Origin: a virus
Taxonomy: Duplodnaviria; Caudoviricetes
Reading direction: 5' to 3' (one strand)
IMG/VR virus record: IMGVR_UViG_2585428004_000001
Span: 1-64,000 of that record
DNA: 64,000 bases
Shown here: piece after piece, positions 14,659 through 48,900 of the stretch
How the letters are laid out: each line of letters begins with the position of its first letter
How positions within the stretch are numbered: the first letter of the stretch is position 1
Position numbers and translations under genes: made by a program
Notes under the pieces: generated by a model
What the model saw: the letters and a program-made list of their open reading frames with translations, nothing else
Told to the model about the DNA's origin: nothing
The model's database searches: none

Positions 14659-15027
14659 TTATTCTTCTTCAAGTAATTTCTTATACCAGTAAACAGTCTT
14701 TTTCAAGAACTCTTCTTTCTTTTCTTCACTGAGTTCTTTGTTACTGGTAATCTGAGAAATTGACTTAGATAGTATAGGATGAGATTCTAATGCTTGTCTA
14801 GTGGATAAAGGTATTTTTCCAAAACATTCAAATAAGCGGTCTTCATTCAGCCCTAGAACTTTTGCGAGATTGACAATGATATCATCAGAGGGATTTGAAT
14901 TTTCTCCCTTCTCTAACTTAGATATATAATTAATAGAAACGCCGACCATTTTAGAAGTTGTTTCCAGTGTGTACTTCTTCTCTAATCTTTTTAATCTGAG
15001 TAGGTCTCCAGTATTGTTGTTTTCCAT
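14659..15027 (-). CDS. XRE-family repressor
   Basis: TLETTSKMVGVSINYISKLEKGENSNPS. Confidence 0.9.
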   Translation of the reverse strand: MENNNTGDLLRLKRLEKKYTLETTSKMVGVSINYISKLEKGENSNPSDDIIVNLAKVLGLNEDRLFECFGKIPLSTRQALESHPILSKSISQITSNKELSEEKKEEFLKKTVYWYKKLLEEE

Positions 15028-15114
15028 ACAACCACCTTCGTATAATTAGTTTAGTTGATTAAGTACCAAGTTAAGCACCAATTATCATGATAACACAATG
15101 TTTAGACTACTTAC

Positions 15115-15178
15115 ACTCTGACTTGAAATTTTAAAGTCAGAGTTGAAAAAAGTCTTGATTTCAACTCTAAGTTGAAAT
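15115..15178. promoter_or_regulatory. Inverted repeats between divergent units (candidate XRE operators)
   Basis: ACTCTGACTT..AAGTCAGAGT (15115-15143); ATTTCAAC-tctaa-GTTGAAAT (15158-15178). Confidence 0.5.
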
Positions 15179-15480
15179 ACAATAATAAAGTCGTAACATT
15201 TGTAACATAATTGAAAAACAGGAAATACATACAAGATGAATCCGCACTGTGCCAACATTGACACGGAGGGCAGATGGTAAAACATCAAGAGGTAAATGGC
15301 AAAAAATTCTTGAAGTAAAGAGAAAAATAATATACTTCGAATTCGAGATTTTTTTTGGTCGAGAAATCGAACGTATGTACTCTTAAAGTATAAAATGGCA
15401 AAAAAATTATGAAGTACAGCCTTGTCAATAGATATGGCGAAAACATAAAAAACTTAATAAGTAGGGGGAAGTTAGTTACT

Positions 15481-19592: not shown

Positions 19593-19850
19593 ATGGTTAA
19601 ATACAAGAAAGGTAATGTTGTAGTTGAAGCCATAGAGTTCACTGACAGCAGTAAAGATATGATTTTCCATTGGATTACTCACACTCGTGAACCGATTTTT
19701 ATCGATGGCGAACCTGCTTTAAAAATGAGAACTTTGGAAGGCTATGTGGTTGTTAGATTTGGAGACTATGTTGTAAAAGGTGTAAATGGAGAGTTTTATT
19801 CGTGTAAGGCTGATGCCTTCCATGATACCTATAAACCAATTAATTTATAA
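19593..19850 (+). CDS. Conserved phage protein
   Basis: TLEG...GDYVVKGVNGEFYSCK.D.F..TY motif. Confidence 0.75.
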   Translation: MVKYKKGNVVVEAIEFTDSSKDMIFHWITHTREPIFIDGEPALKMRTLEGYVVVRFGDYVVKGVNGEFYSCKADAFHDTYKPINL

Positions 19851-19885
19851 AATGCGTATTTTAATAACTTTGAGGAGGAATTAAA

Positions 19886-25750: not shown

Positions 25751-26716
25751 GTGAGTATGTTCCGTAAACCATCAACAAAACAATTAGGTCTTAAAGTTCT
25801 AGCAATGGGTCAAAAAGGTTCTGGTAAATCAGTATTTGCACTTTCATTCCCACGAGTATTTGCAATCGATGCAGAAACTGGTATGGCATTTTATGAAGAC
25901 CATCCACAATTTGGTCAGAATTTAGAAGGTGTACTAAATACTCAAAACTTCAATGAAGTACAAGAGGCGATTGACGAAGTAATGGATATGGGTGTAGAGG
26001 AAGTTGGTTCTCTTGTAATTGATTCTGAAACAAAGATTTATCAAAACTTAACTGATGCAAGCTTACAGGTTGAAGAGAAGCGAGCTAGAAAGAATGGTAA
26101 AGATGTCAATGATTCAAGCGTATCTATGCGTGGATATGGTCGCATTAAGCTTGTAGCAACTCGTTTGCAAAATTTGAAAATCGACTTATCTGCAAAAGGT
26201 GTTAACATTATCTCTATTTCACAAATTGATGATATTAAGCAAAAGGTTGGCGAGAACTTCGTTAAAATTGGAGAGAAACCAGTGATGCAAAAGAACTCTG
26301 AATACGATTACGATATTGTTATCAAGCAGTTCACAGAGAAGACGCCAACTGGAGAAGAGATTTATAAAGGTGAAATCTTAAAAGACCGAACAGGCGTTAC
26401 AAAAGTTGGACAAATTGTTGACAATCCTTCTTATGACATTTGGAAAAAATTCATTGAATCACGCAAAGGCGCAGATAAAATCAAGTCTAACCTTGCTCAA
26501 GATTCTGATAAGGCTAAAAAGGCTCTTGAAGAAGAGGATGCAGAGGCTGAGAAAACTGTTGTAGACAAGTTCCGTGAAGTTATGCAAAAAGACGAAGCTA
26601 AGAAGAAAGCACCAGAGTTAATCAAGCAATACGGTATTAAAAATCCTCTTGCACCTGCTAATGCAAAAGAACTGCAAGATTTAAGTAAAATCGTAGAAGA
26701 ATTAGAGAAGCTGTAA
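25751..26716 (+). CDS. AAA_24/Sak4-like ATPase (SPbeta YorG-like)
   Basis: GQKGSGKS Walker A, IDAETG, LVIDSET. Confidence 0.8.
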   Translation: MSMFRKPSTKQLGLKVLAMGQKGSGKSVFALSFPRVFAIDAETGMAFYEDHPQFGQNLEGVLNTQNFNEVQEAIDEVMDMGVEEVGSLVIDSETKIYQNLTDASLQVEEKRARKNGKDVNDSSVSMRGYGRIKLVATRLQNLKIDLSAKGVNIISISQIDDIKQKVGENFVKIGEKPVMQKNSEYDYDIVIKQFTEKTPTGEEIYKGEILKDRTGVTKVGQIVDNPSYDIWKKFIESRKGADKIKSNLAQDSDKAKKALEEEDAEAEKTVVDKFREVMQKDEAKKKAPELIKQYGIKNPLAPANAKELQDLSKIVEELEKL

Positions 26717-28985: not shown

Positions 28986-29012
28986 AACAAAACCATTAAA
29001 ATGGAGGTAGGC

Positions 29013-29396
29013 ATGGAACAGATTCAATCACATCCAATTAAAGATATCTATCGAATCAGAGAAGGGGTTCTCATAGAGGTTCATAAATATGAATCTCTTG
29101 GGTACTGGATTGGGAGACAAAAGCTTGCAAAAACAGTGAGAGGCTGTAAAGGGCTACAGGTGTTAACTGCACCTTATCTAAGAAAATATTCATATAAATC
29201 AACAGAACACTATCCAGAAGGTACATTACTTTTAGATGGTGAGCCAGTAAAACCAATCACAGATTATAGAGACTTTCGAATTGAAGTGAAGTCGAGTGGT
29301 GGTTCAGTGCTTGACTCGTTTGATGAAATTATGAAGTTTACAAATCAAGTTCAAGAAATCATTGATTCATATAAAAATGCAGAGGAGATTAATTAA
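29013..29396 (+). CDS. Hypothetical protein
   Basis: RBS GGAGG. Confidence 0.7.
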   Translation: MEQIQSHPIKDIYRIREGVLIEVHKYESLGYWIGRQKLAKTVRGCKGLQVLTAPYLRKYSYKSTEHYPEGTLLLDGEPVKPITDYRDFRIEVKSSGGSVLDSFDEIMKFTNQVQEIIDSYKNAEEIN

Positions 29397-29398
29397 CT

Positions 29399-30055
29399 AT
29401 GACTATGGAATTAACAATGGCTTTATTATCAATTATTTTAATCGACATCGTACTAAGTGGGGATAATGCAGTGGTAATTGCTCTAGCATGTCGCAATCTA
29501 CCAGAGAAATTACGTAAGAAGGCAGTAATTATTGGATGTGCAGGAGCGATTGGACTACGAGTCTTACTCACATTCTTAGCGGTTTACCTATTAGAAATCC
29601 CTTACGTTCAATTCATTGGCGGTCTAATGCTTGTATGGATTGCAGTTAAGCTTCTAAAAGGCGAAGAAGAGCATCAACTTGAAGGTGGTAGCACAATCTG
29701 GTCAGCAATTAAAACAATCATTGTAGCAGACTTTGTAATGAGTTTAGACAACGTAGTAGCTGTAGCAGGAGTAGCAAATGGTCACACAGGTTTATTAGTA
29801 ATTGGATTATTAGTAAGTATCCCATTAATTATCTGGGGTAGCCAAATCTTAATCAAGCTTATGGAACGATTCCCAATCATTGTAGCATTTGGTTCAGCTT
29901 TACTTGGATACACAGCAGGAACAATGATGATGCACGACAAGATTATTGGCAAATTCATCACAGAACACTTCCAAGCAGGACAATATGTCGTTCCTATTGG
30001 ACTAGCAGTATTAGTTGTTGTTATTGGTAAATTGGCAAGCAAGCGCTCTAAATAA
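29399..30055 (+). CDS. terC: TerC/YjbE-family membrane protein
   Basis: LSGDNAVVIAL, D.VMSLDNV, multiple TMs. Confidence 0.92.
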   Translation: MTMELTMALLSIILIDIVLSGDNAVVIALACRNLPEKLRKKAVIIGCAGAIGLRVLLTFLAVYLLEIPYVQFIGGLMLVWIAVKLLKGEEEHQLEGGSTIWSAIKTIIVADFVMSLDNVVAVAGVANGHTGLLVIGLLVSIPLIIWGSQILIKLMERFPIIVAFGSALLGYTAGTMMMHDKIIGKFITEHFQAGQYVVPIGLAVLVVVIGKLASKRSK

Positions 30056-30077
30056 GAGCCTTGCCTGCTTCATACAT

Positions 30078-30243
30078 AAAGAAAGAAGCCGACCAGTGTG
30101 AGCTAATCGACTTCCTCGCAGACCCCAGACAAGGTCATTGACGAAACAACGACGACAATCGTTGAATCGCTTATAGAGAACCAACCCAACGACAATTGGT
30201 AAAACGTTGGAACTCAAGCTTATATGCTTAGGCATTGCATATA
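30078..30243 (-). ncRNA. Candidate ~165-nt small RNA
   Basis: Minus-strand TTGAAA..TGaTATAAT promoter (30249-30276), four hairpins and a G-U-containing terminator (30078-30116). Confidence 0.55.
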
Positions 30244-30278
30244 AGACCATTATATCAGATAGAGGAGAGATTTCAAAT

Positions 30279-30665
30279 ATGTTTAGCTTATTTAAAAAGA
30301 AAGTAGATAAAGTTGTATGTAGTCACAAATGGCATCACTTGCAAGATACTTATATATCCGCCAATCATATGTGCGATGTTGACGATGCATGTTATATCTT
30401 CTGCTCAAAATGTGAAATGCAGAAACTTGTAATAGATTCAGAATGGGAAAGAATCAAGAAGATGCAAGAGATAATTGATGATGAAAAGCCTCGATATAAG
30501 TTTGTCTTAAAGATTACTGATTCCAAAACTGGCAATGGTAGCATCGTGATTGTAAAGGGTAATGATATAAAGAAAGTTAATAAGTCTACGGTCATCATTG
30601 ATGAAGTGGAGATGGCGTTTGGAGTCTTTGAATATATCGCAGAAATCAACGCTTATTCAATTTAG
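30279..30665 (+). CDS. Hypothetical protein (CxH..CxxC zinc motif)
   Basis: RBS GAGGAG before ATG 30279. Confidence 0.65.
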   Translation: MFSLFKKKVDKVVCSHKWHHLQDTYISANHMCDVDDACYIFCSKCEMQKLVIDSEWERIKKMQEIIDDEKPRYKFVLKITDSKTGNGSIVIVKGNDIKKVNKSTVIIDEVEMAFGVFEYIAEINAYSI

Positions 30666-30677
30666 GAGGAGATTATA

Positions 30678-30836
30678 TTGTTCACTAAAATATTAGTATT
30701 CTTAATTATTTATCTAGTAATAGGGTTCGGTTGGAATTATGCCGAGAAGATTTTTTATGGGAAAGCAACTCCGAAGCTTATAGACGATGTCATAGCCATC
30801 ATTCTAACCATATCGATTTACAACAATATCTATTAA
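30678..30836 (+). CDS. Small membrane protein (52 aa)
   Basis: RBS AGGAG; MFTKILVFLIIYLVIGFGW... Confidence 0.6.
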   Translation: MFTKILVFLIIYLVIGFGWNYAEKIFYGKATPKLIDDVIAIILTISIYNNIY

Positions 30837-30876
30837 TAAAACCACTCTTTTAATAACTATTAGGAGGAAGTCCAAG

Positions 30877-31092
30877 ATGAGAAAACGACAAATAAAGAAG
30901 AGAGATAATAAGCTGTTTATCGCTATAAGGGAGCTTAACGATGATTTATCAAGAGACTTTGGTTTATCGACAATACCAGATGATGAGGTCTTGAAGATTC
31001 GTGACAAAATCAAGAAAAGTCCAGATAAAGTGAATGGTACTTTTAGGGATTATGGGAAACTTAGGAGGTTTAACCGTGGGTGTAATTGGTGA
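30877..31092 (+). CDS. Hypothetical protein
   Basis: RBS AGGAGG. Confidence 0.65.
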   Translation: MRKRQIKKRDNKLFIAIRELNDDLSRDFGLSTIPDDEVLKIRDKIKKSPDKVNGTFRDYGKLRRFNRGCNW

Positions 31093-31351
31093 GATTTTCG
31101 AAATACTAGGAACAAATGCTAACAACATTTCTTTGGCAATTGGAGTAACAAGGCATACTGTATATGACTGGATGAAGGGAAGAAGAAAGATACCTTCTGA
31201 AAGAGTTAAGCAACTTAGTGAATTACTTAAAGTGCCTCATTATCTATTTGAAAAAGAAGGAGAACTGGATAGGTCTGAAAAGCTACTCCTTCTGGAAGTC
31301 TATGCAACATCAATACTAGGAGAAGAAGCATCTGTTAGATTAAAACGTTAG
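31076..31351 (+). CDS. Cro/XRE-like HTH protein
   Basis: ISLAIGVTRHTVYDWMKGRRKIP; RBS AGGAGG before GTG. Confidence 0.8.
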   Translation: MGVIGEIFEILGTNANNISLAIGVTRHTVYDWMKGRRKIPSERVKQLSELLKVPHYLFEKEGELDRSEKLLLLEVYATSILGEEASVRLKR

Positions 31352-31362
31352 GAGGAATAACC

Positions 31363-31557
31363 GTGAGCAAAGATACTAAGATATTAATCAAATTATTCAT
31401 AGGATACACAGTGTTCACTGCACTAATCTCTTATGGAGACCTGTACTTCAATGAGTCACACAAATTCAATTACTACAATCTAGGAATACCATTCTGGTGT
31501 ACGCCATGGATGTTTATCATAGGCAAGAAGTTTAATATGTTCGAAGGAGATGAGTGA
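31363..31557 (+). CDS. Small membrane protein
   Basis: Two hydrophobic segments; RBS present. Confidence 0.65.
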   Translation: MSKDTKILIKLFIGYTVFTALISYGDLYFNESHKFNYYNLGIPFWCTPWMFIIGKKFNMFEGDE

Positions 31558-31808
31558 GCATGAAGAAGTTATTAATCATACTGTCTCTTATGTTAGTTAC
31601 AGTAGGATGTGAAAGCAAAGATACTCCACAAGATATAAAGAAAACAGATAGTAGCAACGATGAGGATATCAAAGTGTTCATCGACAAGGAGACTGGTTGC
31701 GAGTATTTATATCGAAATAAAACACATGGATATGCAGGAACTGGTGGAATGACAGTTCGTTTAGATGGAAACAAACAGCCTAAAGGTTGTAAGAACTTAA
31801 ATCAATAG
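31554..31808 (+). CDS. Lipoprotein (DUF6440-like)
   Basis: Lipobox TVGC; DKETGCEYL...GGMT.RLD. Confidence 0.75.
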   Translation: MSMKKLLIILSLMLVTVGCESKDTPQDIKKTDSSNDEDIKVFIDKETGCEYLYRNKTHGYAGTGGMTVRLDGNKQPKGCKNLNQ

Positions 31809-31816
31809 GAGGAATT

Positions 31817-32152
31817 ATGATGATTTATTGTAATCTTTATAACACTAAATGCCATGTTGAAGAAACAAATGCAGATGAATATCCAACCCCATGCCACTGG
31901 TGCAACAGTGGTAAAGGAAAATCATATAAAGAGCATTTTGTAGAATCTGAAAAACTATTAAAAGAGAAAGCAGATTTAGAGAATGAATGTTTATTGCTAG
32001 GTAAGTACATTGGCTTTTTAAAAAGTGTTATTAAAAGTGGTGAATATTTTGATGAACATAAACATCATTTCGAATGGTTCTGTAGAAAATATCAAGAATC
32101 TACATCGGCAGGAAACGATGTGTTAGTAAATAATAAAAACTACATTTTATGA
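31817..32152 (+). CDS. Hypothetical protein
   Basis: RBS AGGAGG; C-terminus reads through the cassette-like site. Confidence 0.65.
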   Translation: MMIYCNLYNTKCHVEETNADEYPTPCHWCNSGKGKSYKEHFVESEKLLKEKADLENECLLLGKYIGFLKSVIKSGEYFDEHKHHFEWFCRKYQESTSAGNDVLVNNKNYIL

Positions 32153-32166
32153 AGAGGTGAATCGAA

Positions 32167-32313
32167 ATGCCTTATTTGAATGATAAAGGGTATTGTAGGA
32201 AATGCAAAAGAATAACATCTCACAGATTTAGTTTAAAAGTAAAATGTCTTAACTGCAAAACTGAATCTACACAAGAGGAATATCGAAAAGGATTAGAAGA
32301 AAAGAAAGATTGA
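32167..32313 (+). CDS. Small zinc-ribbon protein (48 aa)
   Basis: CRKC...CLNC; RBS GAGGTG. Confidence 0.65.
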   Translation: MPYLNDKGYCRKCKRITSHRFSLKVKCLNCKTESTQEEYRKGLEEKKD

Positions 32314-32345
32314 TAAAATGATTATTTTATGAAGAGGTGAGAAAC

Positions 32346-32492
32346 GTGTACAAAATGATGTTTCATTGGGAGAGACAAGATAAAAAAGGTAAATTCACTG
32401 TCGAAGCTTTGACTGTGGAAGATTGTATTGAAAGTGCAGAAAAAGAGATTCAAGCATTTGAAGCAGAGATGGTAGATTGGTATGTTGTCTAG
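32346..32492 (+). CDS. Small hypothetical protein (48 aa)
   Basis: RBS GAGGTG; GTG start. Confidence 0.6.
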   Translation: MYKMMFHWERQDKKGKFTVEALTVEDCIESAEKEIQAFEAEMVDWYVV

Positions 32493-32526
32493 TTGAATAA
32501 AATAACATTTTATGAGGAGCGATAGC

Positions 32527-32727
32527 GTGGAGACATACGAGTATGCAGGGATATATTTATATCACTATGAATGGTTTCTTATAACCGATGAAAGAAAAGA
32601 TATTGAGAGACTAGGAGGCAAATCGGAGTTTATGGGTGTTTTAAATAAGTTGGGTAGAGAAGGATGGAGGCTCTCTATAAAGGTATCTGATGAGCATTAT
32701 GTATTGATTAGAAAGGTAATGAAATAA
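32527..32727 (+). CDS. Small hypothetical protein
   Basis: LNKLGREGW motif; RBS GAGGAG. Confidence 0.65.
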   Translation: METYEYAGIYLYHYEWFLITDERKDIERLGGKSEFMGVLNKLGREGWRLSIKVSDEHYVLIRKVMK

Positions 32728-32747
32728 CATTCTTACAAGGTGATAAC

Positions 32748-32936
32748 ATGGAAGATATCGAGCGAAAGATATTACAGAAAACAGCAGATATATGGAATAT
32801 GTTTTTAGAGTTAGAGCAAACACATCCTTCTGATATTAATGACTTAGGAAATGCAATTCATGACATTCAGAAGATTATTTCAATAAGAATGGCAAGAAGA
32901 ACAGATTCAGATTTATTTGTGACAATTAAAAAATAA
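32748..32936 (+). CDS. Small hypothetical protein
   Basis: HPSDI..AIH..Q motif; RBS AAGGTG. Confidence 0.65.
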   Translation: MEDIERKILQKTADIWNMFLELEQTHPSDINDLGNAIHDIQKIISIRMARRTDSDLFVTIKK

Positions 32937-32963
32937 TAAATATATATTTTATGAGGTGATAGT

Positions 32964-33157
32964 ATGGCAAAGACAGTAGAGATTATTGGTTTGAAATTTC
33001 ATCATGGCACTTATACAGAGGGAGTAACAAAGGTAAACGATTGACACATCTGCGTTGCGTAGCGAACAAAATGATAATCATGCACGATAAAGAAGGGTAT
33101 GTAATTCGTGAGATATTTCTATCAGAAGGATTTATGGCTTCTGTAACACATTGTTGA
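32964..33157 (+). pseudogene. Decayed small gene between two cassette-like sites
   Basis: RBS and ATG; frame stops after 26 codons; coding-like tail MIIMHDKEGYVIRE...THC ends at the next site. Confidence 0.5.
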
Positions 33158-33184
33158 AACTACATTTTATGAAGGAGCAATATT

Positions 33185-33757
33185 ATGAAAACATTTTTTA
33201 CGAGTGACACACATTTTTGGCATAAGAACATCTTAAACTTCGAAAACAGACCATATTCGTCTGTAGAAGAAATGACAAAAGATATGATTAAGAAATGGAA
33301 CGAGCAAGTTGACGATGAAGATATTATCTATCATTTAGGTGACTTGTGTCTAGGAAACTTTGACCAAACAGTTGATGTTCTAAAGCAACTTAAAGGTAAA
33401 ATCATTTTGATAAAAGGCAACCATGATTATTCAAAGCATTATAAGAAAATCAATGAAATGGGATTATTGCATGAATATCATGAGATTGGAATTACTTTAA
33501 ATTATAACAAACAGCAGATGTGGTTAACTCACTATCCATTTGAGATTGGATTGCGACAACGGAAATGGTCTATTCATGGACACATTCATGGAATGGAGTC
33601 AACTTGGGATAATCAGATTAACGTTGGAGTAGATAGCCCACACTTCAAGCATAAGAAGTTTGGAGAACTAATAGCAATTGAAGAACTGTATGAGTTAATG
33701 GAGGGTCGTTTACCTTCAATAGAAGAAAGATACATGAATCAAAAATGGGATAGATAA
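33185..33757 (+). CDS. Calcineurin-like metallophosphoesterase
   Basis: SDTH, LGD, GNHD, HYP, HGHIH. Confidence 0.92.
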   Translation: MKTFFTSDTHFWHKNILNFENRPYSSVEEMTKDMIKKWNEQVDDEDIIYHLGDLCLGNFDQTVDVLKQLKGKIILIKGNHDYSKHYKKINEMGLLHEYHEIGITLNYNKQQMWLTHYPFEIGLRQRKWSIHGHIHGMESTWDNQINVGVDSPHFKHKKFGELIAIEELYELMEGRLPSIEERYMNQKWDR

Positions 33758-33771
33758 GAGGAGGAATTACT

Positions 33772-34107
33772 GTGTTACAAGTTAATCATCAATACTACTG
33801 TTTAGAAAGTGGATACAATCATGAATCATTTGATTCTTGGCAAGACTTTATCGACACATGGGGAAGCGATGTGGACATGGATTACAACCTATTATTCAGA
33901 TGGGATTGGAAGCCTACTGATGAAATTCAGCCAGAACTTTACCCAGAGCGAGTAGAATTATTCTTCATGCATCAACGAAGAGGAGATTACTCATCTGTAT
34001 TCGTCAAAGTCAGCAAAGCTGATGAAGAGGCTATTCGTAAGTTTATAGCGCCACGATGGGAGCATATGAAGAAGTTGTGGACACCATTTGCAGAGGAGGG
34101 GAAATAA
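33772..34107 (+). CDS. Hypothetical phage protein
   Basis: RBS GAGGAGG; DMDYNLLFRWDW. Confidence 0.7.
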   Translation: MLQVNHQYYCLESGYNHESFDSWQDFIDTWGSDVDMDYNLLFRWDWKPTDEIQPELYPERVELFFMHQRRGDYSSVFVKVSKADEEAIRKFIAPRWEHMKKLWTPFAEEGK

Positions 34108-34109
34108 CG

Positions 34110-34460
34110 ATGGGAGTAGACTACTATTCTTGCGAAGTTTGTAATGATGCATTTTCAGATGCAGGACATTATGGGCATTGCAGTAAATGTGAAGAGAATT
34201 TATGTGGACATTGTTATGATGAGATGCGTAAAAAGTATGGTGAGATTGGTGAGAATCATGAGAAGTCTGGTTTCTTCAGTGAATGTTCACCAAAGTGCTG
34301 TGATGCGTGTAATGGATTAGAAGAAAGAAATAAAAAGATAGATGATGTAAGAGTATTTGTAAGGTGGGTAGCGGAGGATTTACGTGAAAGTAGTCTATCT
34401 ATCGATGATATAGAAGAAATGGCAAAGGATACTCTAACTATTATTGACGAATTAAAGTGA
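34110..34460 (+). CDS. Cys-rich hypothetical protein
   Basis: Four CxxC motifs; RBS GAGGGG. Confidence 0.7.
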   Translation: MGVDYYSCEVCNDAFSDAGHYGHCSKCEENLCGHCYDEMRKKYGEIGENHEKSGFFSECSPKCCDACNGLEERNKKIDDVRVFVRWVAEDLRESSLSIDDIEEMAKDTLTIIDELK

Positions 34461-34545
34461 CAGAGATTGTTATAAACGATAGTCTTCGTACAAATATTGA
34501 AAGGAATTCAGAGGACTATACACTATTACAAGGGAGATACTGTTG

Positions 34546-35259
34546 ATGAGCAAATTAATCGATTTAACTAAAAAGGCAAAGGTTGTCTTAGAGAAGAAAG
34601 AGATTTTTGGTGAGAAAGCGCAAGTTGTATATATTACTGACATTTCAGTTTCTATGAGTAGTCTTTATAGCAACGGAACAGTGCAAGAACTAACTGATAG
34701 ATTACTTGGAATCGGCATGAATTTAGACGTTGATAAGAGTATTGATGTGTTCGCATTTGGAAGGAATGCACATGAGGTTGGCTCTGTGACAGAAGGTAAT
34801 CATCAAGGATTCGTAAACAATGTCTTATTACAGAAAGTGTCTTTAGAAGGCTCAACGAACTATGCAGGAGTAATGGATATGGTTGTTAATAAGTATGGGC
34901 AACCTGTTAAGAAGGGATTGCTATCACGAATTATGGGAAGCAAGCACTCTGAAAAGCCAACTGTACCTACACTAGTATTCTTCATTACAGATGGCGATAA
35001 CTTTGATAAGAGAGAAGCAGAAGAGATTATTCGTAAGTCATCTAATCAAGCAATCTTTTGGCAGTTTGTCGGTATCGGTAGAGCAAGCTTTGACTTCTTA
35101 CAGAAACTCGATGATATGTCTGGGAGATTTTTAGATAATGCTGATTTCTTTAATGTTAATGACCTGCGAAGAATTAGCGATGAGGAGTTCATGGATAGAA
35201 TATTAAATGAGTTCCCAGAGTGGATTAACCAAGTAAGAAACAAAGGCATATTAGAATAG
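34546..35259 (+). CDS. vWA domain protein (Ter-cluster TerF-associated type)
   Basis: DISVSM MIDAS, FITDGD, FWQFVGIG, LDD...R..DNADFF. Confidence 0.85.
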   Translation: MSKLIDLTKKAKVVLEKKEIFGEKAQVVYITDISVSMSSLYSNGTVQELTDRLLGIGMNLDVDKSIDVFAFGRNAHEVGSVTEGNHQGFVNNVLLQKVSLEGSTNYAGVMDMVVNKYGQPVKKGLLSRIMGSKHSEKPTVPTLVFFITDGDNFDKREAEEIIRKSSNQAIFWQFVGIGRASFDFLQKLDDMSGRFLDNADFFNVNDLRRISDEEFMDRILNEFPEWINQVRNKGILE

Positions 35260-35269
35260 GAGGATTAGT

Positions 35270-35428
35270 ATGAATAAAGAGACTTTCAAACAAATATTTA
35301 AAGAATTATTAGAAGATGGAGATATCGCTTTATACGTTGAAAGAGAGGTCGACTACGATTCAATCTCTATAAAAACAGAAGTTCACATCGATGGAGAAAA
35401 GGTTTACGAAAGCAAACAACGTTTATGA
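35270..35428 (+). CDS. Small hypothetical protein
   Basis: RBS AGGAGG; 52 aa. Confidence 0.55.
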   Translation: MNKETFKQIFKELLEDGDIALYVEREVDYDSISIKTEVHIDGEKVYESKQRL

Positions 35429-35437
35429 GGTGATAAT

Positions 35438-35605
35438 ATGCAGTGGGGCGACAAGAATAAACCTAAATACCTAAGTCTTATCTTTGGGAAAGATTGGGAT
35501 AAAGATGATTTCAAATTCTTCTCATTTAGAAAAACACCATTAGGATGGTCAATGAATATTTGGAGATTTGCAATCGACTATGATAATTATAAAAACGTTA
35601 AGTAA
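35438..35605 (+). CDS. Small hypothetical protein
   Basis: RBS GAGGTG; 55 aa. Confidence 0.55.
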   Translation: MQWGDKNKPKYLSLIFGKDWDKDDFKFFSFRKTPLGWSMNIWRFAIDYDNYKNVK

Positions 35606-35615
35606 GAGGTAGCAT

Positions 35616-35770
35616 ATGAAAAAGGAGACAAAGTAGTTTTTAATCTAGGAGGAAACGATACGACAGTATGGACTGTATCCAGTGATGAGTTTGTTATGGA
35701 TTCAGTAATATATGTCTATCTAGATGGTTATAGAGGGGAAGTTAATATTAAATTCTTAAAGAAAGTTTAA
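35616..35770 (+). pseudogene. Small gene frameshifted in an A-run after the ATG
   Basis: One extra A in ATGAAAAAGG restores MKKGDKVVFNLGG...FLKKV. Confidence 0.5.
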
Positions 35771-35779
35771 GGTGGTTAT

Positions 35780-35908
35780 ATGGCACTTAGTATCTATTGT
35801 TCAGAGTGTGATAGACAAGTAGAAATAACAAAGTTCACCGTTTACAAAGAGGGTAGAGACATCTATGTAGAATGTGACTATTGTAACGATAAGGAGGAAG
35901 TAGACTGA
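35780..35908 (+). CDS. Small zinc-ribbon protein
   Basis: CSEC...CDYC; RBS AAGGTGG. Confidence 0.55.
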   Translation: MALSIYCSECDRQVEITKFTVYKEGRDIYVECDYCNDKEEVD

Positions 35909-36129
35909 TGTGTGCATGTGGAGTAGATAAGAGAGTAGGATGGCGACAGTGCTGTAAGTCCCTAAAGCTGAAGCCAGTTGGATATATTCCGAATCTTCCA
36001 TCAAAGAGAAAGAGGTTGATTCAATTAGAGAAATTGATAAAGTCACATATTGACCTAGATGTCCCTGTTCATAAAGCAATAATGGACGAATACAACAGTC
36101 TATGTAGTCAATTGAAAGAGAGGTGCTAA
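35908..36129 (+). CDS. Hypothetical protein
   Basis: RBS AAGGAGG. Confidence 0.6.
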   Translation: MCACGVDKRVGWRQCCKSLKLKPVGYIPNLPSKRKRLIQLEKLIKSHIDLDVPVHKAIMDEYNSLCSQLKERC

Positions 36130-36457
36130 CATGTGGAAATTTGCTGAAGAACATCCAATAATGTTTTTTGTTCTTGCGGTCATTGCAATCAATGGAATAT
36201 GCAGTATCATTCAAAGTTTTTGCAGAATTTTCTATTACTAGAAAGGTGGATTTAGTTGAAACAGATATTTAAAGTAGGGTGCATGGCACTATTCACAGTA
36301 TTAATCGTAAACCTAATCCTACTATGTGGAGTAGCATGGTTTGTAATTTGGTGCTTACAACAAATTGGATTCTAATCATTAAACAAAACCATTGCAATGT
36401 TGCTGATAGTGTGCTAAAATGATACTATCAGCAATTTGTTTATGTAGGTGAAAATAT

Positions 36458-37504
36458 ATGAATGCAGAACAGTTAAAAGCGTATCTTGTAGAAGATGTAG
36501 AAAGAATTGAAAAGTTATTAGAAGCCGTTGGTTGTCATCGTATCTGGCGTAGTGGGGACGAGATTCGTTCAGCACCACCAGAAGGTAATAACCACACTGC
36601 AGTATCTGTAAATGTGGATAGTCTCTATTGTAAGTATTACAGAGAAAGAGAGACATTTCGTGGAGACATATTCAAATTGATTGGATTGTTTCGTAACGAA
36701 GGGTTTAAAGAGTCGTTTAGGTTTACACGTAATCTCTTCAACTTAAGTGGCAAGTTCACCAAGGAGAAAGAGAAGCGTGACCCATTGCAAGCCTTTAAGT
36801 CTATAAGGAAGCAGAGTAAGATAATCACTGACTTCGATGATGTTGAACTAACTAAATATGGGAAAGAGGTATTAGATGGATTCATAATGTTGCCTCATAT
36901 GTCTTTGTTCCACGAAGGGATAACGTTGCAGTCTCAAGAGTTCTACGACGTTTGCTATCATCCACAGGATGGCAGAGTTTGCTTCCCTCATTACCATCCT
37001 TTAGACAAGGAAGCTATTGTCGGCATCACTGGAAGGACTTTGAAGAGCAAGGCAGAGATGGAGGCTTTTAATATCCCTAAATACTTCAACTTCATTAGAA
37101 ACTATAAAAAGTCCTACTCGTTATATGGGTTTAGCCATGCAATCGAAGAGATTGAGAAGGCTAAGATGATTGTAGTTGTAGAAGGAGAGAAGAGTGTTCT
37201 TAAACTGCATTCAATGAAGCAGGGATATGCAGTGTCAGTTGGTTCTCATGAGATATCTCCAGTGCAGGTTAATTTAATCTTAAAGTACACATCCATGGAT
37301 ACTGAGGTAGTCGTCGCTTTTGATAGTGATGTTATGAAGGATGAACAGTATCTTATTAACTGCTGTAAGAAGTTCTCTAAATACAGAAAAACTAGCTACA
37401 TCATGGACAATCCTAACTTCCCAATATTAGGTGAAAAGGATGCGCCTGTCGATGGCGGTGTTAAGAAATGGAATCATCTATTGAAATATCGAAAGGAGGT
37501 TTAA
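36458..37504 (+). CDS. DNA primase (TOPRIM; SPbeta YorJ-like)
   Basis: IVGITGR, PKY, LYG, VVEGEKS, AFDSD. Confidence 0.85.
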   Translation: MNAEQLKAYLVEDVERIEKLLEAVGCHRIWRSGDEIRSAPPEGNNHTAVSVNVDSLYCKYYRERETFRGDIFKLIGLFRNEGFKESFRFTRNLFNLSGKFTKEKEKRDPLQAFKSIRKQSKIITDFDDVELTKYGKEVLDGFIMLPHMSLFHEGITLQSQEFYDVCYHPQDGRVCFPHYHPLDKEAIVGITGRTLKSKAEMEAFNIPKYFNFIRNYKKSYSLYGFSHAIEEIEKAKMIVVVEGEKSVLKLHSMKQGYAVSVGSHEISPVQVNLILKYTSMDTEVVVAFDSDVMKDEQYLINCCKKFSKYRKTSYIMDNPNFPILGEKDAPVDGGVKKWNHLLKYRKEV

Positions 37505-39413: not shown

Positions 39414-40682
39414 ATGGCACGTTTAACATATCAGCAGTTAGAGTTAATAAAGGAAAAGATGAACGTTAAGCAAATTTGGAGTTTTAGTAAGATGAGTACA
39501 TTCTCACAGTGTACTTGGGCGTACTTTTTACGTTATATCCAAAAGATTCGTGTGAAAGGTGACAACTGCTATACAGTATGGGGAACAAACTCCCATGATA
39601 TCATACAGGGATTCTATGAAGATGAGTTTACTTATGAAGGCATGCTAGTTGAATTGGAGCAGAGAATCCTTGATTATCTAATGGCAGATGATAAGAAGCT
39701 TAAGTTCCCAAATGATAGTGAATGGGAATCATATATTGCTAACATTCGACATTACTTCACTAATACAGAAGTAATTCCATACAAGGTTGTAAATGAGAAG
39801 CCAGTATTAGCAGAATTCAAAGGTATTGAGAAGTATATCTTCCAAGGCTACATAGACTCCGAATATTATGACGAACAGAATAACTTTGTAATCCTTGATT
39901 ATAAAACATCTTCTATGAGCGGATTTACAGGCAAGAAGTTAATTGAGAAGGCTCAACAGCTTATCATCTATGCATTTGGTGTTAGTAAGTTCCGTAAGAT
40001 TCCTATGGAGAAGATTCGAATCAGATACGATATGATGAAATACTGCAATGTAACATTCATGCAGAAGAATGGAAAAGAGAAGACTTCAAAAGCTGAACGT
40101 AGACTTTGGGTTGCTCATATGGCTAATCAAATTCGAAAAGACCTTCAAGATGTTCCAAAAGAGATTGAGAAGGTTAATAAGGAGATTGCCAAGCTTGAGA
40201 GAAAACTTAATCTAAAGAAGACTACAGAAGAAGAGAAGCCTGCTATCAATGCACTAATTGAAGTAGAGAAGCAGAAGATTGTAGAGATAGAGAAGGATTT
40301 ATTCGATGTAGTTACTATTGATGATATGATTACAACGGCTATCAATGAGAATAACTTAGATAACATGCCTCCATTTGTTAAGAATAAGTATAAAGTTGGC
40401 AATTGCTATATTGATGTTGAATTAACACCAGAGGTTCTTGAAGAGGTGGAATCTCAAATTGTTGATACATTAAACAAAATCATTAAAAAAACTGAAGCGG
40501 AGAATCATGAAGAGGCGTTTACCAGAGGTAAAATCGAGAACAGTGATTCATACTACTGTGTGAATCTTTGTGATATGAGAGACCACTGTAAGTTCTATAA
40601 AGAGTTCAAAGAGCATAATGCTATGTTCTTAGAGAAGGAAGCGCCAAGTGACGAGCAAATCCTTGCTATGCTAGGTTTATAG
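39414..40682 (+). CDS. PD-(D/E)XK (RecB/Cas4-like) nuclease
   Basis: WSFS...C, GYID...ILDYKT, QL..Y, C-terminal C..LC...C. Confidence 0.8.
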   Translation: MARLTYQQLELIKEKMNVKQIWSFSKMSTFSQCTWAYFLRYIQKIRVKGDNCYTVWGTNSHDIIQGFYEDEFTYEGMLVELEQRILDYLMADDKKLKFPNDSEWESYIANIRHYFTNTEVIPYKVVNEKPVLAEFKGIEKYIFQGYIDSEYYDEQNNFVILDYKTSSMSGFTGKKLIEKAQQLIIYAFGVSKFRKIPMEKIRIRYDMMKYCNVTFMQKNGKEKTSKAERRLWVAHMANQIRKDLQDVPKEIEKVNKEIAKLERKLNLKKTTEEEKPAINALIEVEKQKIVEIEKDLFDVVTIDDMITTAINENNLDNMPPFVKNKYKVGNCYIDVELTPEVLEEVESQIVDTLNKIIKKTEAENHEEAFTRGKIENSDSYYCVNLCDMRDHCKFYKEFKEHNAMFLEKEAPSDEQILAMLGL

Positions 40683-45625: not shown

Positions 45626-45866
45626 AAAGAGACCTGTTATGTTTATCCCATCTAACTTTACAGTTGCAGAGAAAGTTAGAATTAGCTTTGAAGACTGCAA
45701 TATCAAAATGCACGATGGCATTGAAATGCTATATGCAAACATGTACAAAGACCATTTTGAAGGTGACCTTTACTATAAAGGTTGGGATATCTATACCGAA
45801 GATAACCCAGTAGTATTTTTAGACAAAATTGAATCAGTTATTTTACAGGAGGAACGATTAGTATGA
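45615..45866 (+). CDS. Hypothetical protein
   Basis: Coupled to the end of dnaE. Confidence 0.65.
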   Translation: MASKKRPVMFIPSNFTVAEKVRISFEDCNIKMHDGIEMLYANMYKDHFEGDLYYKGWDIYTEDNPVVFLDKIESVILQEERLV

Positions 45867-46198
45867 CAACTAAAACAATTACATTATCAGAGAAGAGATT
45901 TGAAGAAATCAAAAAAGGCACAGTATTAAAGTTTGAAAATGACTTGTTTATCGTAGCAGAAATTGAAGGTGCTAAAAACGTAGACCCTGTCAACGATGCT
46001 TTATTTAGTCCAAGTTCTATTAGAAGCACACCATATTTCAGACAAGAGCGAGTGGAGGCTAAGTACAACTTAGTAAGCTTTATGAGTGGTTCTCGATTCT
46101 ATGGTGAAAACACTTCTTTACAAGAACTTATTCGAAAAATCACCAATCGTACTCGTAAGTTTCAAGTAGTAGATAAAATTGAATTTATCGAAGGTTAA
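45863..46198 (+). CDS. Hypothetical protein
   Basis: RBS AGGAGG. Confidence 0.7.
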   Translation: MTTKTITLSEKRFEEIKKGTVLKFENDLFIVAEIEGAKNVDPVNDALFSPSSIRSTPYFRQERVEAKYNLVSFMSGSRFYGENTSLQELIRKITNRTRKFQVVDKIEFIEG

Positions 46199-46250
46199 AC
46201 AAATCCATTAAGATATAATATTAAACAAAACCATTGCAAAGGGGATAGTT

Positions 46251-47171
46251 ATGAATACAGCAGACCTGCAGTACAACGGCATTATTAAAGAGATTATAGA
46301 GAATGGCAAATGGGATAAGGATGTGAGAGCAAAGTGGGCTGACGGCTCACCTGCTCCCACTAAGTCCATTCTGAATGTATCAATGACATTTGATAATGGT
46401 TCAGATATTCCATTAATTACTTCAAAGAGAGTCGCTGTTAAATCAGCACTGGTTGAAATGTTTTGGATTTGGCTTAAGAAGTCCAATGTTGTCCAATATC
46501 TTCGTGATATGGGTTCAACGATTTGGGATGAATGGGAGAAGCCAGATGGCACAATCGGACGTGCGTACGGATGGCAATTAGCCAATAAGCGCAGAAAGGT
46601 TAAGGCAGATGAACTATTCTTTGAAATGTGGAATAATGGCGAAATATCAAGTGCTATTCCTATCTTTGAAAAAGACGATAAACCATTTACTCATGTAATG
46701 CTAGACCAAGTAGACTATCTTCTTTACATCCTTAAGAAGAATCCTTATTCACGAAGAATTAAGACTACTCTATGGTGTGTAGAAGACTTAGATGACATGG
46801 CTTTAGAGCCTTGTGTGTATGAAACTCACTGGCAATTATGGGATGATAAGTTACATCTTACAGTCAATATTCGCAGTAATGATATGGCTCTAGGCAATCC
46901 ATTTAATATCTATCAATATGCAATTCTACATCGAATGATTGCACAAGTAACTGGTTATAAGGTTGGTACAATCCACTTCAATATTGACAATGCTCATATC
47001 TATGACAGACACCTTGAAGCGTTAGAAGGGCAATTAGAGATGCCTACATTTGAAGTCCCAGATATCTGGATTAACCCAGAGGTTACAAGCTTCTATAAAT
47101 TCACTGTAGATGATGTGAAGGTAATAGATTACAAGCATGGTGAGACAATCAGAATGGAGGTAGCTATCTGA
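46251..47171 (+). CDS. thyA: Thymidylate synthase
   Basis: IWDEW, YGWQ, MALEPC, RSND..LG.PFN, HIYD.H. Confidence 0.96.
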   Translation: MNTADLQYNGIIKEIIENGKWDKDVRAKWADGSPAPTKSILNVSMTFDNGSDIPLITSKRVAVKSALVEMFWIWLKKSNVVQYLRDMGSTIWDEWEKPDGTIGRAYGWQLANKRRKVKADELFFEMWNNGEISSAIPIFEKDDKPFTHVMLDQVDYLLYILKKNPYSRRIKTTLWCVEDLDDMALEPCVYETHWQLWDDKLHLTVNIRSNDMALGNPFNIYQYAILHRMIAQVTGYKVGTIHFNIDNAHIYDRHLEALEGQLEMPTFEVPDIWINPEVTSFYKFTVDDVKVIDYKHGETIRMEVAI

Positions 47172-48211
47172 TGATTAAGATGATAGCTTGTGTAGACAGC
47201 AATATGGGAATTGGCAAGGATAATGAACTCCTTGTCCATCTCCCAGAAGACCTAAAGCATTTCAAAGAAACAACTACTGGAAGAGTATGTATCTTTGGTA
47301 GAACAACATTTGAATCACTGCCTATCAAGCCACTTCCAAATAGAAAGAACGTTGTACTAACAAGAGACAAGGACTTCTCTCATATAGGATGCAAGACAGT
47401 TCACAGCGTTGAAGAAGTAATTCAATTATCAAAGACTACTGATGTGTTTATATGTGGTGGAGCAAATGTATATAAGCAATTTATGCCACATGTTGATGAA
47501 TTAATTATCTCTCATATGAAAGCTAGTTTTGATGCTGATACATTCTTTCCAGATATAGATAAATCTATATGGGAAGATTACGATTCTGAAAGCATAGTCG
47601 ATAAAGTAGAATTTGAGATTGTTAAATACCGTAGAAAATCAAATAACCCAGAAAGAGGTAAGTCTATGACAATTACAACAGCAGATATTAAAGGAAAATC
47701 AATTAAGGAGTTAGTTATGGAACACGGAGAGAAAGCAGTATTAGAGGCAGTGTCACAGAAGATTCGTGGATTTGAAGTAGTGAAAGATGAGCATCGTAAG
47801 AATAAAGGCGTAGAGATTCAAAAGCCAAAAAGAGGAACTAGTCGCAGTGCAGGATATGACTTCTTCTCACCTATAGATGTTACGATTGGGGTCGGAGAAC
47901 AGAAGATGATTTGGTTAGATGTAAAGGCTTATATGCAGTCGAATGAGGTTCTTTTAATAGATGTTCGTTCTTCTCAAGGTAAACCAAGAATTCGTCTGGC
48001 AAATACGATTGGAGTTATCGATTCTGACTACTACGGAAATGTAAAGAACGATGGTAACATTGGTATCATGTTAGAGAATCATGGCTCTCAACCATATGTA
48101 ATTAAAACTGGCGATAGAATCGCCCAAGGCATCTTCACTGTCTATCTAGTTGCAGATGAAGACGAGTGCATCAACGAGACACGAAAGGGTGGCTACGGCT
48201 CTACTAACTAG
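47171..48211 (+). CDS. Dihydrofolate reductase-dUTPase in-frame fusion (internal dUTPase start at 47666)
   Basis: DHFR: IGKDN.L..HLPEDL..F, GRTTFES, GGA, DTFFP. dUTPase: SAGYD, RSS, GVIDSDY, GDRIAQ, RKGGYGST. Confidence 0.88.
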   Translation: MIKMIACVDSNMGIGKDNELLVHLPEDLKHFKETTTGRVCIFGRTTFESLPIKPLPNRKNVVLTRDKDFSHIGCKTVHSVEEVIQLSKTTDVFICGGANVYKQFMPHVDELIISHMKASFDADTFFPDIDKSIWEDYDSESIVDKVEFEIVKYRRKSNNPERGKSMTITTADIKGKSIKELVMEHGEKAVLEAVSQKIRGFEVVKDEHRKNKGVEIQKPKRGTSRSAGYDFFSPIDVTIGVGEQKMIWLDVKAYMQSNEVLLIDVRSSQGKPRIRLANTIGVIDSDYYGNVKNDGNIGIMLENHGSQPYVIKTGDRIAQGIFTVYLVADEDECINETRKGGYGSTN

Positions 48212-48220
48212 TATTAACTT

Positions 48221-48252
48221 CAAAGACTATGTCGAAATGGCATAGTCTTTTT
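48221..48252 (+). terminator. Intrinsic terminator
   Basis: AAAGACTATGTC-gaaat-GGCATAGTCTTT-TT. Confidence 0.75.
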
Positions 48253-48463
48253 CAATATATTTGTTGACTTATCAAATCTACTGTATTACTATATAAGTGT
48301 TACAGTAAATGGATAAAAGAGGGAAGTTATGAAGGTTAAAAGGTGCTAAAAGGATAGCAGTAGAATATGCTTTCATGTTTGATGGCACAAATGCTACACT
48401 AAGCAATCTAAGAATGAGCGTTGATGAAGCAATGGATATTATGAGAGATAAGGGGTGTCGTTA

Positions 48464-48850
48464 ATGTACTGGTATGAATACAGATTAAGAGGATTTAGCC
48501 TTGGCTGTCAGCCAAAGGACTTTGTAGATGTTAATCATGAGCATGGTAGATTTGGAGCAGTAGCTTACAATCGTGAATTAACAGATGAAGAAGTTGAAAG
48601 ATATGAGTTGACTAAGATTGAGCCAAAGGAGAACAAGTTGAAGGTTCTTGCAAAAGAGATGGTCTGGGTTAACGATGAACTAGATAAAGAGAACCTTTAT
48701 GAATGGGATAGAGATGAGTTTAAAAAGAAAGCCGATGAAATTCAAATGAAGGTTATCTCTGGTAATTATAGCATTGATTTATTTATTCAATACATGAATG
48801 AGTATCGAAATTTGAGCCTTGGAGAATACAATGAATGGATTAAAAGCTAA
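48464..48850 (+). CDS. Protein with an N-terminal DarA_C-like domain
   Basis: YWYEYRLRGFSLGCQPK...G.VAY.RELT.EE...YEL. Confidence 0.55.
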   Translation: MYWYEYRLRGFSLGCQPKDFVDVNHEHGRFGAVAYNRELTDEEVERYELTKIEPKENKLKVLAKEMVWVNDELDKENLYEWDRDEFKKKADEIQMKVISGNYSIDLFIQYMNEYRNLSLGEYNEWIKS

Positions 48851-48900
48851 TAAAACTCAGATTTTAATAACTATTAAGCTAAAGGGCAGGAGATGAAATT

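Follow-up and report, generated by a model that had tools for sequence, protein, structure and literature searches.

Known boundary elements of phages and the array at 32133-33170

The promoter-early stem-loop (PeSL) cassettes of T4-type phages (PMC2839356; PMC4122927) are described as short intergenic cassettes that run, in AT-rich DNA, from the stop codon of one gene to the Shine-Dalgarno sequence and start of the next. They occur chiefly among the small orphan genes of hyperplastic regions, and a few copies lie in conserved modules; they bound insertions, deletions and replacements between related phages, and their flanking repeats suggest exchange via circles (PMC2839356). We have found all of these features at a far shorter element in IMG/VR virus record IMGVR_UViG_2585428004_000001, a virus of 119,986 bp with direct terminal repeats, whose first 64,000 nucleotides (here called the window) were analysed. 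The element is a 16-bp palindrome, TAAAA-N6-TTTTA, often lengthened to TAATAAAA-N6-TTTTATTA, which punctuates an array of small genes at 32133-33170 and recurs at other gene junctions of this genome. In our judgement the chances are about even that it is, in SPbeta-related phages, a conserved element at the boundaries between cistrons and serves in addition as a linker for recombination, as the PeSLs do in T4-type phages.

The two elements differ in several respects. The PeSL, as its reports describe it, measures ~100 bp and has a strong sigma-70-type promoter and a stable GC stem-loop or terminator, whereas the element of the window has a 16-bp AT palindrome core with a fixed 6-bp spacing and no such stem-loop, and the units of the array lack a sigma-A-type promoter. 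In addition, the hosts are here Gram-positive and the phages temperate, of a phage-plasmid/SPbeta lineage. The ESAS elements of Cluster K mycobacteriophages are also inverted repeats with a variable spacer found just 5' of many translation starts and, like the palindrome, are kept with particular gene families across genomes; a function is described for neither, for the ESAS within the report that introduces them (PMC3203893). The ESAS arms are imperfect and of 17 bp, the spacer is of 4-13 bp and the element is tied to a 13-bp start-associated sequence (PMC3203893), whereas here arms of 5-9 bp enclose a spacer of strictly 6 bp, the phasing is on the upstream stop and the sequence is a different one. 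The stoperators of Cluster A mycobacteriophages and the SPBRE of SPbeta resemble the palindrome in their many short intergenic copies in a temperate phage, often at stop or start codons, but they are asymmetric and oriented and the palindrome is symmetric (PMC9283540; PMC10516654). The reader of SPBRE in SPbeta is a protein of tyrosine-recombinase fold (PMC10516654), and its counterpart is encoded in the window.

The original prediction for this stretch was an integron-like system of gene-cassette capture and shuffling. The attC sites of integrons are long imperfect inverted repeats that fold as single strands; a structure of this type is absent here, the sites being 16-28 nt long with predicted folds of -0.1 to -2.8 kcal/mol. 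There is no integrase, attI or Pc beside the array either, the nearest genes of Phage_integrase fold lying 18-21 kb upstream, and the array cannot be counted among the integrons. It resembles one in its co-oriented, promoterless and unrelated small genes, each with an inverted-repeat site, and in a gene content that varies between relatives. It differs in that the site, like the ribosome-binding site that accompanies it, stands 5' of the gene, and in that the same site is used genome-wide at conserved junctions. The part of the prediction that stands is that the sites are real and enriched, that they punctuate small genes and that content differences fall at them; the missing integrase and attC-like fold, the differing spacers and the lineage-wide distribution of the element speak against the rest.

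The sites, their spacing and their occurrence in the lineage

The six sites of the array lie where they had been predicted, at spacings of 180, 184, 222, 217 and 217 bp, and every one is on or beside a stop codon and directly 5' of the next ribosome-binding site. The form ATAAAA-N5/6-TTTTAT that had been ascribed to all six holds for the first three. Site 1 (32133-32150, spacer ACTACA), which overlaps the TGA stop of a 111-codon gene, and site 2 (32313-32330, spacer TGATTA), immediately 3' of a stop codon, are exact with N6, and site 3 (32497-32513) has exact arms with N5. The repeats at 32719-32736 and 32936-32952 (both of family D7) are degenerate, and that at 33153-33170 (family D1) has a degenerate left arm and a spacer and right arm that match site 1. 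As a palindrome, the N5 site at 32497 is background in the genome-wide spacing scan, and its membership is given only by its place in the array and by the alignment of the junction repeats. In this alignment (A1; repeat families D1, D2 and D7; consensus AATAAAACTACATTTTATGAGGAGGT) all six sites form a junction repeat of ~28 nt that reaches from the upstream stop through the ribosome-binding site.

Neighbouring sites of the array carry different spacers (ACTACA, TGATTA and others), and these variants are met again in other genomes. The two outermost sites, 32133 and 33153, have an identical core of 18 nt with the spacer ACTACA in both, so that direct repeats surround the five cassettes. Because these bracketing repeats share their spacer, the block of five genes (32167-33157) resembles the product of one insertion, or of several, at the same ancestral position, if insertion was indeed the direction of the event. 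One DNA sequencing run, perhaps the source itself, carries the stretch, and no RNA run that carries it was found. The contigs of the DNA run span 30500-34500 as one identical piece, with no joints given; being contigs only, they are uninformative on circles.

The enrichment over an AT-rich background was confirmed. ATAAAA-N4-8-TTTTAT occurs four times in the window against 0.30 expected, and none of 100 shuffles reached four. For TAAAA-N5-7-TTTTA the whole genome has 11 copies, 10 of them in called non-coding DNA and the eleventh (32134) over the last codons of a gene; in the pooled non-coding DNA of the genome these 10 matches compare with 1.3 expected and with a maximum of five in 300 Markov-1 simulations. 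Genes were called with a crude script, whose calls cover 77-83% of each genome. In four related genomes, 34 of the 35 exact N6 sites are non-coding or at a gene edge, the share of such DNA in the sequence being ~20%. A scan of spacings from k=0 to 15 gave a single peak, at k=6, with 10 copies in this genome, 34 in SPbeta and 23 in the phage PBC2, against 0-4 at other spacings (the highest off-peak count in this genome being four, at k=15); the inverse arrangement of the arms had no spacing peak in the same scan. One Bacillus plasmid (W02, NZ_CP069392.1) shows extra peaks at TAAAA-N9-TTTTA (11 copies) and TAAAA-N12-TTTTA (nine), which the other genomes do not have.

The palindrome is not confined to this record. 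Syntenic relatives are three IMG/VR genomes of 127-137 kb (G001-G003) with protein identities of 40-88% to this genome (G000), and an equal degree of relatedness is shown by circular plasmids (130-148 kb) of Bacillus wiedmannii and B. velezensis, with 67-68% identity in the RecD2-like helicase; the Bacillus plasmids used here are W01, W02 and W03, the last for the site counts only. A more distant kinship links the record to SPbeta, of which the terminase, polymerase, helicase, primase and the pair yopP and yopR (mrpR) all match (tblastn with SPbeta open reading frames of at least 120 codons, E<1e-5). The source is read as a temperate phage whose relatives are kept as plasmids. The phage collection has no near match to 30000-36000. 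A specific 19-nt scan of viral contigs returned G001-G003 and two further contigs, and a scan with a loose pattern returned scattered single matches only.

With the reversed arrangement of the arms as the control, TAAAA-N5-7-TTTTA was counted 12, 7 and 17 times in G001, G002 and G003, against 2, 2 and 1. The counts of TAAAA-N6-TTTTA were six in each of the three Bacillus plasmids (control 1-2), 23 in PBC2 (control 1), 23 in vB_BcoS-136 (control 6), 25 in Kirov (control 1), 21 in the Clostridioides phage pCD1602_4 (control 4), 25 in a Vagococcus plasmid (control 3) and 34 in SPbeta (control 2); SPO1 has none of either. The arms are invariant in phages of Bacillus, Clostridioides and Vagococcus.

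The position of the palindrome relative to genes is also regular. The TAA of the left arm is itself the stop codon at 12 of the 16 stop-associated sites of SPbeta, as counted by script, and in PBC2 the offset is 0 at eight of 16 sites and -3 at five; at many of the remaining sites a second in-frame TAA precedes that of the arm. The next start codon lies mostly 14-35 nt past the site, and 14-18 nt past it at 11 of 17 PBC2 sites. Between 17300 and 19800 of PBC2, five sites stand among small hypothetical genes and begin 1 nt past the stop or overlap it, and four of them finish 16-17 nt ahead of the next annotated start. SPbeta has the same geometry at the yoqC/yoqD, mtbP/yorV, yosC/yosD and yosF/yosG junctions. 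Given its occurrence throughout the lineage and the same geometry in PBC2 and SPbeta, what the array shows is a general element in a locally dense series, not a special locus.

In the early arm of the genome the palindrome comes after a stop codon and before the ribosome-binding site that follows. Its late-arm copies are 3' of a terminator-like hairpin and stand just 5' of a promoter or of a second, oriented motif, AAACAAAACCATT, which is considered below (83269 and 91543 here, 102439 and 109867 in G001, 36093 in G003). The spacer is found in both orientations relative to transcription. At an orthologous late junction (83269 here, 102439 in G001, 123394 in G002 and 28043 in G003) the arms have been kept and the spacer has changed.

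The same site had been claimed for six further junctions of the window. It is exact at five of them, and the sixth, 9472-9489, has a variant left arm, TAATA; its 16-mer is also present in G003 and W01. The palindrome at 5552-5569 (spacer TCATCA) recurs as an exact 16-mer in each of the seven close genomes or plasmids that were examined, and at least four of its contexts are unrelated. That at 19847-19864 lies over a stop codon with the next start 23 nt on, and is kept with its downstream gene in G001. The palindrome at 30836-30853 is 3' of a gene for a 52-codon membrane protein, whose copy in W01 is followed by another spacer and another downstream gene, and that at 48850-48867 is 3' of a conserved 70-codon gene after which the downstream gene is different in every relative. 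At 58678-58695 the spacer is GTTAAG, and a late-region junction in G001 and W01 has this 16-mer in inverted orientation. The right flank TTTTAATAACT is, as had been noticed, common to 19847, 30836, 48850 and 58678.

The genes between the array sites are all on the + strand and mutually unrelated (no pair of the five cassette proteins at E<0.1), as had been proposed. A tandem duplication of one ancestral gene is ruled out because the cassette proteins are unrelated. The array follows the 111-codon gene (31817-32152, + strand), which is conserved in G001 and G002 over its first 46 codons only. Cassette 1 (32167-32313, 48 codons) encodes a protein with two C-x2-C pairs of cysteines and a sub-threshold Pfam match to CEBP_ZZ (E=0.009), and has no relative in six related genomes. 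Cassettes 2 (32346-32492, 48 codons) and 3 (32527-32727, 66 codons) are orphans; a search of 5.8 billion proteins with cassette 3 found only its own cluster, which also includes a second contig, of 120,096 bases. Cassette 4 (32748-32936, 62 codons) belongs to phrog_13916 and is distantly related to proteins of Vibrio, Enterocloster and Clostridioides phages; members of this family are called 'DNA ligase' in some Vibrio phage records, a label that is probably wrong for proteins of only ~60 residues. The fifth unit (32955-33157), held in the original prediction to be decayed, is indeed split over two frames (29 and 38 codons), and decay is probable. The right-hand neighbour of the array, a gene for a calcineurin-like phosphoesterase (33185-33757, + strand), is conserved.

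The array genes also appear to be promoterless, as predicted: sigma-A-like promoter matches number 53 against 52.4 expected, no -35/-10 pair was seen at the array junctions, and no copy of the promoter-associated motif of this genome lies within 28986-36382. With no sigma-A-like excess and no copy of that motif in the stretch, these genes are probably read from an upstream promoter.

Some further observations concern neighbouring modules. A block that reaches from a 122-codon gene at 83289 through a long tail-fibre-like gene is bracketed by palindromes, which G000, G001 and G003 (in G003 at 28043 and 36093) have at the same pair of junctions; in G002 the site at 123394 is exact, and the other junction, 132419, bears no more than a one-mismatch variant. 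The tail-fibre-like gene is 85% identical between G000 and G001, above most neighbouring genes. A palindrome also stands between a tRNA gene and a downstream HU-like gene (106400-106900 of G000), and at the corresponding position in G001, G002 and G003, the genes having been read from the sequence in G000 only. A TerC-family membrane protein and a vWA/TerF-like protein are encoded at 29399-30055 and 34543-35259 of the window, and their order relative to the phosphoesterase gene varies among relatives.

Gene exchange at and away from the sites

According to the original prediction, the breakpoints of gene gain and loss would fall within the spacers. Content differences between relatives do fall at the sites, and three-way comparisons place crossovers in the left arm; most breakpoints lie elsewhere. 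When the window is compared with G001, homology stops inside the 111-codon gene, returns for 24 nt (32132-32155) and resumes at the phosphoesterase gene. G001 carries one unrelated cassette at the position of the five cassettes of the window, and both inserts are bracketed by repeats that share ACTACATTT. G003 has an array of its own, with the same junction repeat before other genes.

The junction at 30836 is a three-way joint. Here the 52-codon gene (gene A) is followed by the spacer CCACTC and gene B; in W01 the same gene A is followed by TCATCA and gene C; and in G001 gene C is preceded by TCATCA and a different gene, D. The three have nothing in common but the left arm of the palindrome, ~9 nt. 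At 48850, after the conserved 70-codon gene, four genomes show the same three-way behaviour.

Two counts extend these cases to the whole set of sites. Identical 16-mers form 39 cross-genome pairs, of which 25 lack homology in both 40-nt flanks, where 1.7 were expected and 5000 draws gave at most 10; the pairs are not independent and reduce to four spacer classes with 2-4 contexts each. The conservation of junctions was compared for same-strand neighbours with gaps of -20 to 150 nt, a choice by which the conserved late-region sites are dropped. Junctions with a site were never conserved in 18 cases and conserved in two, and those without a site were never conserved in 187 and conserved in 144 (Fisher p=0.004). 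G002, which has near-identical stretches with G001, was left out of this test (its first three rows) and of the comparison of site retention. In the latter, sites were retained to a similar extent with the upstream gene (33 of 63 comparisons) and with the downstream gene (12 of 32).

Exchange is also seen away from the palindrome. Among 26 ends of blocks of at least 90% identity between G001 and W01, one lies at a palindrome and three at the oriented motif, and most others coincide with stop codons or ribosome-binding sites. For evolved phi3Ts-SPbeta hybrids it is reported that 15 of the 16 junctions lie in homologous regions, the sole non-homologous one being placed 'following yosA' (bioRxiv 10.1101/2020.05.06.055103); the region following yosA adjoins the palindrome at 116415 of NC_001884. 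The block ends of G001 and W01, together with the junctions of these hybrids, support a general rather than a dedicated recombination pathway. A separate event was noticed in G002, where 69938-69949 corresponds to 45791-48486 of G001: 2.7 kb were deleted between 12-nt repeats in coding sequence, truncating the vWA/TerF-like gene. This is a microhomology-mediated deletion without relation to the palindromes.

Candidate proteins, competing explanations and meaning

An arm of replication and nucleotide-metabolism genes in the window encodes a DnaE-type polymerase, a DnaB-like helicase, a primase, a RecD2-like helicase, a ribonucleotide reductase, ThyA and a DHFR-dUTPase. The window has a G+C content of ~35% and nearly all of its genes on the + strand. 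It also encodes two proteins of tyrosine-recombinase fold. The first, which is no more than a candidate reader of the palindrome, is a Phage_integrase protein (10844-11929, + strand), the counterpart of SPbeta YopP with 27% identity, which has kept the catalytic tyrosine and in which the HxxR box reads HTMK. YopP is described as the product of a core gene of SPbeta-like phages with a likely role during lysogeny (PMC10516654). The second is an MrpR-like protein (12800-14029, + strand), the yopR/mrpR counterpart (24% identity), with the MrpR N- and C-domains and a repressor-type tyrosine-recombinase fold. SPbeta MrpR is reported to be a repressor of tyrosine-recombinase fold without recombinase activity, for which chromatin affinity purification with sequencing (ChAP-seq) gave ten peaks, at promoters with the 15-bp SPBRE and not at the 34 palindromes (PMC10516654). 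These published peaks rule out MrpR as a reader of the palindrome, and its counterpart in the window probably reads the oriented motif AAACAAAACCATT instead.

This motif, which reads AACAAAAGTATT in relatives, has ~70 copies per genome, always pointing with transcription; the window has ~35 copies on the + strand between 463 and 58995, and minus-strand copies lie beyond 64 kb. It forms the -35 region of promoters of the TTGCAA-N17-TATAAT type or stands directly 5' of a ribosome-binding site, and is likely the counterpart of SPBRE. A repressor network of the stoperator or SPBRE type fits the oriented motif and not the palindrome, which is symmetric and has its spacer in both orientations.

Other readers of the palindrome were considered. 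A phage sigma factor that would use it as a promoter was rejected because no sigma domain was found, although an unrecognisable factor is still possible: Sigma70_r2 has no match in the genome, the sole match to Sigma70_r4 is the helix-turn-helix of a repressor-like gene (E=0.007), and a YonO-type polymerase was not found in the tblastn search with SPbeta reading frames described above. The divergent region at 15040-15220, between a cI-like helix-turn-helix gene on the minus strand (14659-15027) and genes on the + strand, contains palindromes of GTTGAAA/TTTCAAC that may be switch operators. As judged by eye, these putative operators are palindromes different from the one studied here, and an operator of the cI-like switch was rejected on this ground. 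The term ComK box is found in PMC3536758. Such a box consists of paired AT-boxes, AAAA-N5-TTTT; it was also ruled out, N5 being at background, N6 the sole peak and the sites single.

A double-stranded DNA site is favoured by the symmetry, by the fixed spacing, by arms that do not vary between host genera and by the copies that lie outside transcribed intercistronic positions; we infer that the palindrome is the putative binding site of a conserved dimeric protein, of phage or host origin. The bound element would mark or tune the boundaries of expression units. Recombination between co-resident relatives, homologous or microhomology-mediated, would then repeatedly resolve within the palindrome because it is often the only sequence common to otherwise unrelated neighbouring genes. 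The enzymes may be the AAA_24 ATPase (25751-26716, + strand; a Pfam match and a candidate for short-homology recombination, which we take to be of the Sak4-type recombination family), the PD-(D/E)XK nuclease (39414-40682, + strand; a candidate recombination exonuclease) or host RecA. A crossover in the palindrome spares the upstream stop and the downstream ribosome-binding site, and therefore recombinants would survive. The outcome would be a cassette-like gain, loss and replacement of small genes, as has been proposed for PeSL cassettes.

Several results weigh against this boundary-and-linker reading. When the junction test is restricted to junctions beside small genes, the association becomes a trend (p=0.08; 17 to 1 for junctions with a site, 163 to 54 for the others), and an exact site is present at only 18 of 205 never-conserved junctions. 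A shared left arm of ~9 nt is short for RecA-type homologous recombination. Drift together with homologous recombination does not obviously explain variants that recur while the late spacers change; the recurrence of 16- to 29-nt variants in unrelated contexts, with orthologous late sites changing their spacer, fits a spacer-matched exchange at least equally. The tight phasing on stop codons, for its part, could mean a translational rather than a DNA-level role.

Taking up this last point, the palindrome could be a pure expression signal, in which a strong tandem stop and an AT-rich, unstructured stretch before the Shine-Dalgarno sequence aid termination, re-initiation and ribosome loading. 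Joints would then lie at the sites only because selection keeps recombinants broken between genes, and there would be no role in recombination. The left-arm TAA that serves as the stop (12 of 16 cases in SPbeta and 8 of 16 in PBC2) or follows a second in-frame TAA, the narrow start distance in PBC2, a conserved array unit that reaches through the ribosome-binding site, and the many variable junctions without a site all agree with such a signal. We nevertheless consider it unlikely: neither the strict 6-bp spacing nor the two-fold symmetry is necessary for this role, and sites are also found after terminators, before promoters, and after a tRNA gene, where no reading frame ends upstream. Identical variants of 16 to 29 nt occur in unrelated contexts far above chance, and homology ends exactly at the edges of the site in several three-way comparisons. 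A role in RNA, as a small AU hairpin acting as attenuator, RNase cleavage site or protector of 3' ends between cistrons, seems highly improbable. The sites are intercistronic, those of the late region are near canonical terminator hairpins, and the SPbeta site at 116415 of NC_001884 lies within an annotated stem_loop (116406-116431). The predicted folds, however, are no better than those of shuffles (z-scores from -2.6 to +0.8), no U-tract is found consistently 3' of the sites, the spacer has no co-variation and the arms never switch to other base pairs. Several sites also lie 3' of a terminator and 5' of the following promoter, a position in which little RNA should be made. The negligible folding, together with the lack of any Rfam match in 29000-37000 at E up to 1, led us to reject a hairpin, terminator or processing site.

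A dedicated site-specific exchange comes closer to the original prediction, which had seen in the sites the core geometry of a tyrosine recombinase. The core sites of Cre, Xer and Int-type recombinases are described as inverted arms around a 6-bp central region (PMC10516654), and the inverted arms and the sole spacing peak at N6 do correspond to this; the arms are much shorter, neighbouring spacers differ and no recombinase is linked to the sites. In such a system the YopP counterpart (10844-11929) would bind the inverted arms and exchange strands at the 6-bp spacer, each spacer variant being one exchange class. The strict spacing fits this geometry, spacer classes persist in unrelated contexts (TCATCA in seven of seven genomes, TCCATA in five) and crossovers map to the arm beside the spacer. 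The same-spacer direct repeats that bracket the five-cassette block and the single cassette of G001 would be the footprint of a circle inserted at one site. All 12 motif-enriched records carry recombinase-fold genes, with 2-3 Phage_integrase matches in each of five distant relatives and the yopP/yopR pair in the close family and SPbeta, and the core status of YopP (PMC10516654) agrees with this. This co-occurrence is confounded by shared ancestry and a temperate lifestyle. Because adjacent spacers of the array differ, a classical tyrosine recombinase would not be expected to excise single cassettes, and arms of only 5-9 bp and the HTMK box of the candidate enzyme add to the difficulty. The sister protein, MrpR, is a dead recombinase serving as a repressor (PMC10516654), conserved late junctions bear sites without gene turnover, and the block ends of close relatives are commoner at the other motif and at plain gene boundaries. 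On balance we regard a dedicated exchange as decidedly unlikely. A bolder form of it, in which the palindrome is the target of a YopP-type protein and supports frame-safe, spacer-matched, site-specific exchange of single genes or modules, such as the tail-fibre block, among co-resident phages, prophages and phage-plasmids, is in our opinion a long shot; if it were true, these phages would have an analogue of the integron spread over the whole genome.

The original prediction knew of no description of such a system, and a literature search found none of the element, although the phenomenon itself resembles the PeSL cassettes of T4-type phages. The palindrome is not described in the main texts on Tsamsa (PMC3903500) and Kirov (PMC10454425), in a review of SPbeta (PMC8270828) or in a preprint on SPbeta relatives (10.1101/2021.11.22.469490), the 1999 SPbeta genome paper and the supplements lying outside this search, and a full-text search for written forms of the motif returned no phage paper.

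It has long been asked how tailed phages can shuffle their genes and yet leave them unbroken, and the idea of a linker has been clearly supported mainly by the PeSLs of T4-type phages. The element described here is far shorter and sharply defined, and it bears the PeSL signature, unrelated genes joined at an identical sequence, in a large Gram-positive lineage of temperate phages and phage-plasmids. As this lineage includes the genetically tractable SPbeta, both the function of the site and the pathway of exchange are directly testable. Even if the palindrome were only an expression signal, it would still be an unannotated feature of a model phage that helps to annotate the ends and starts of genes in this group.

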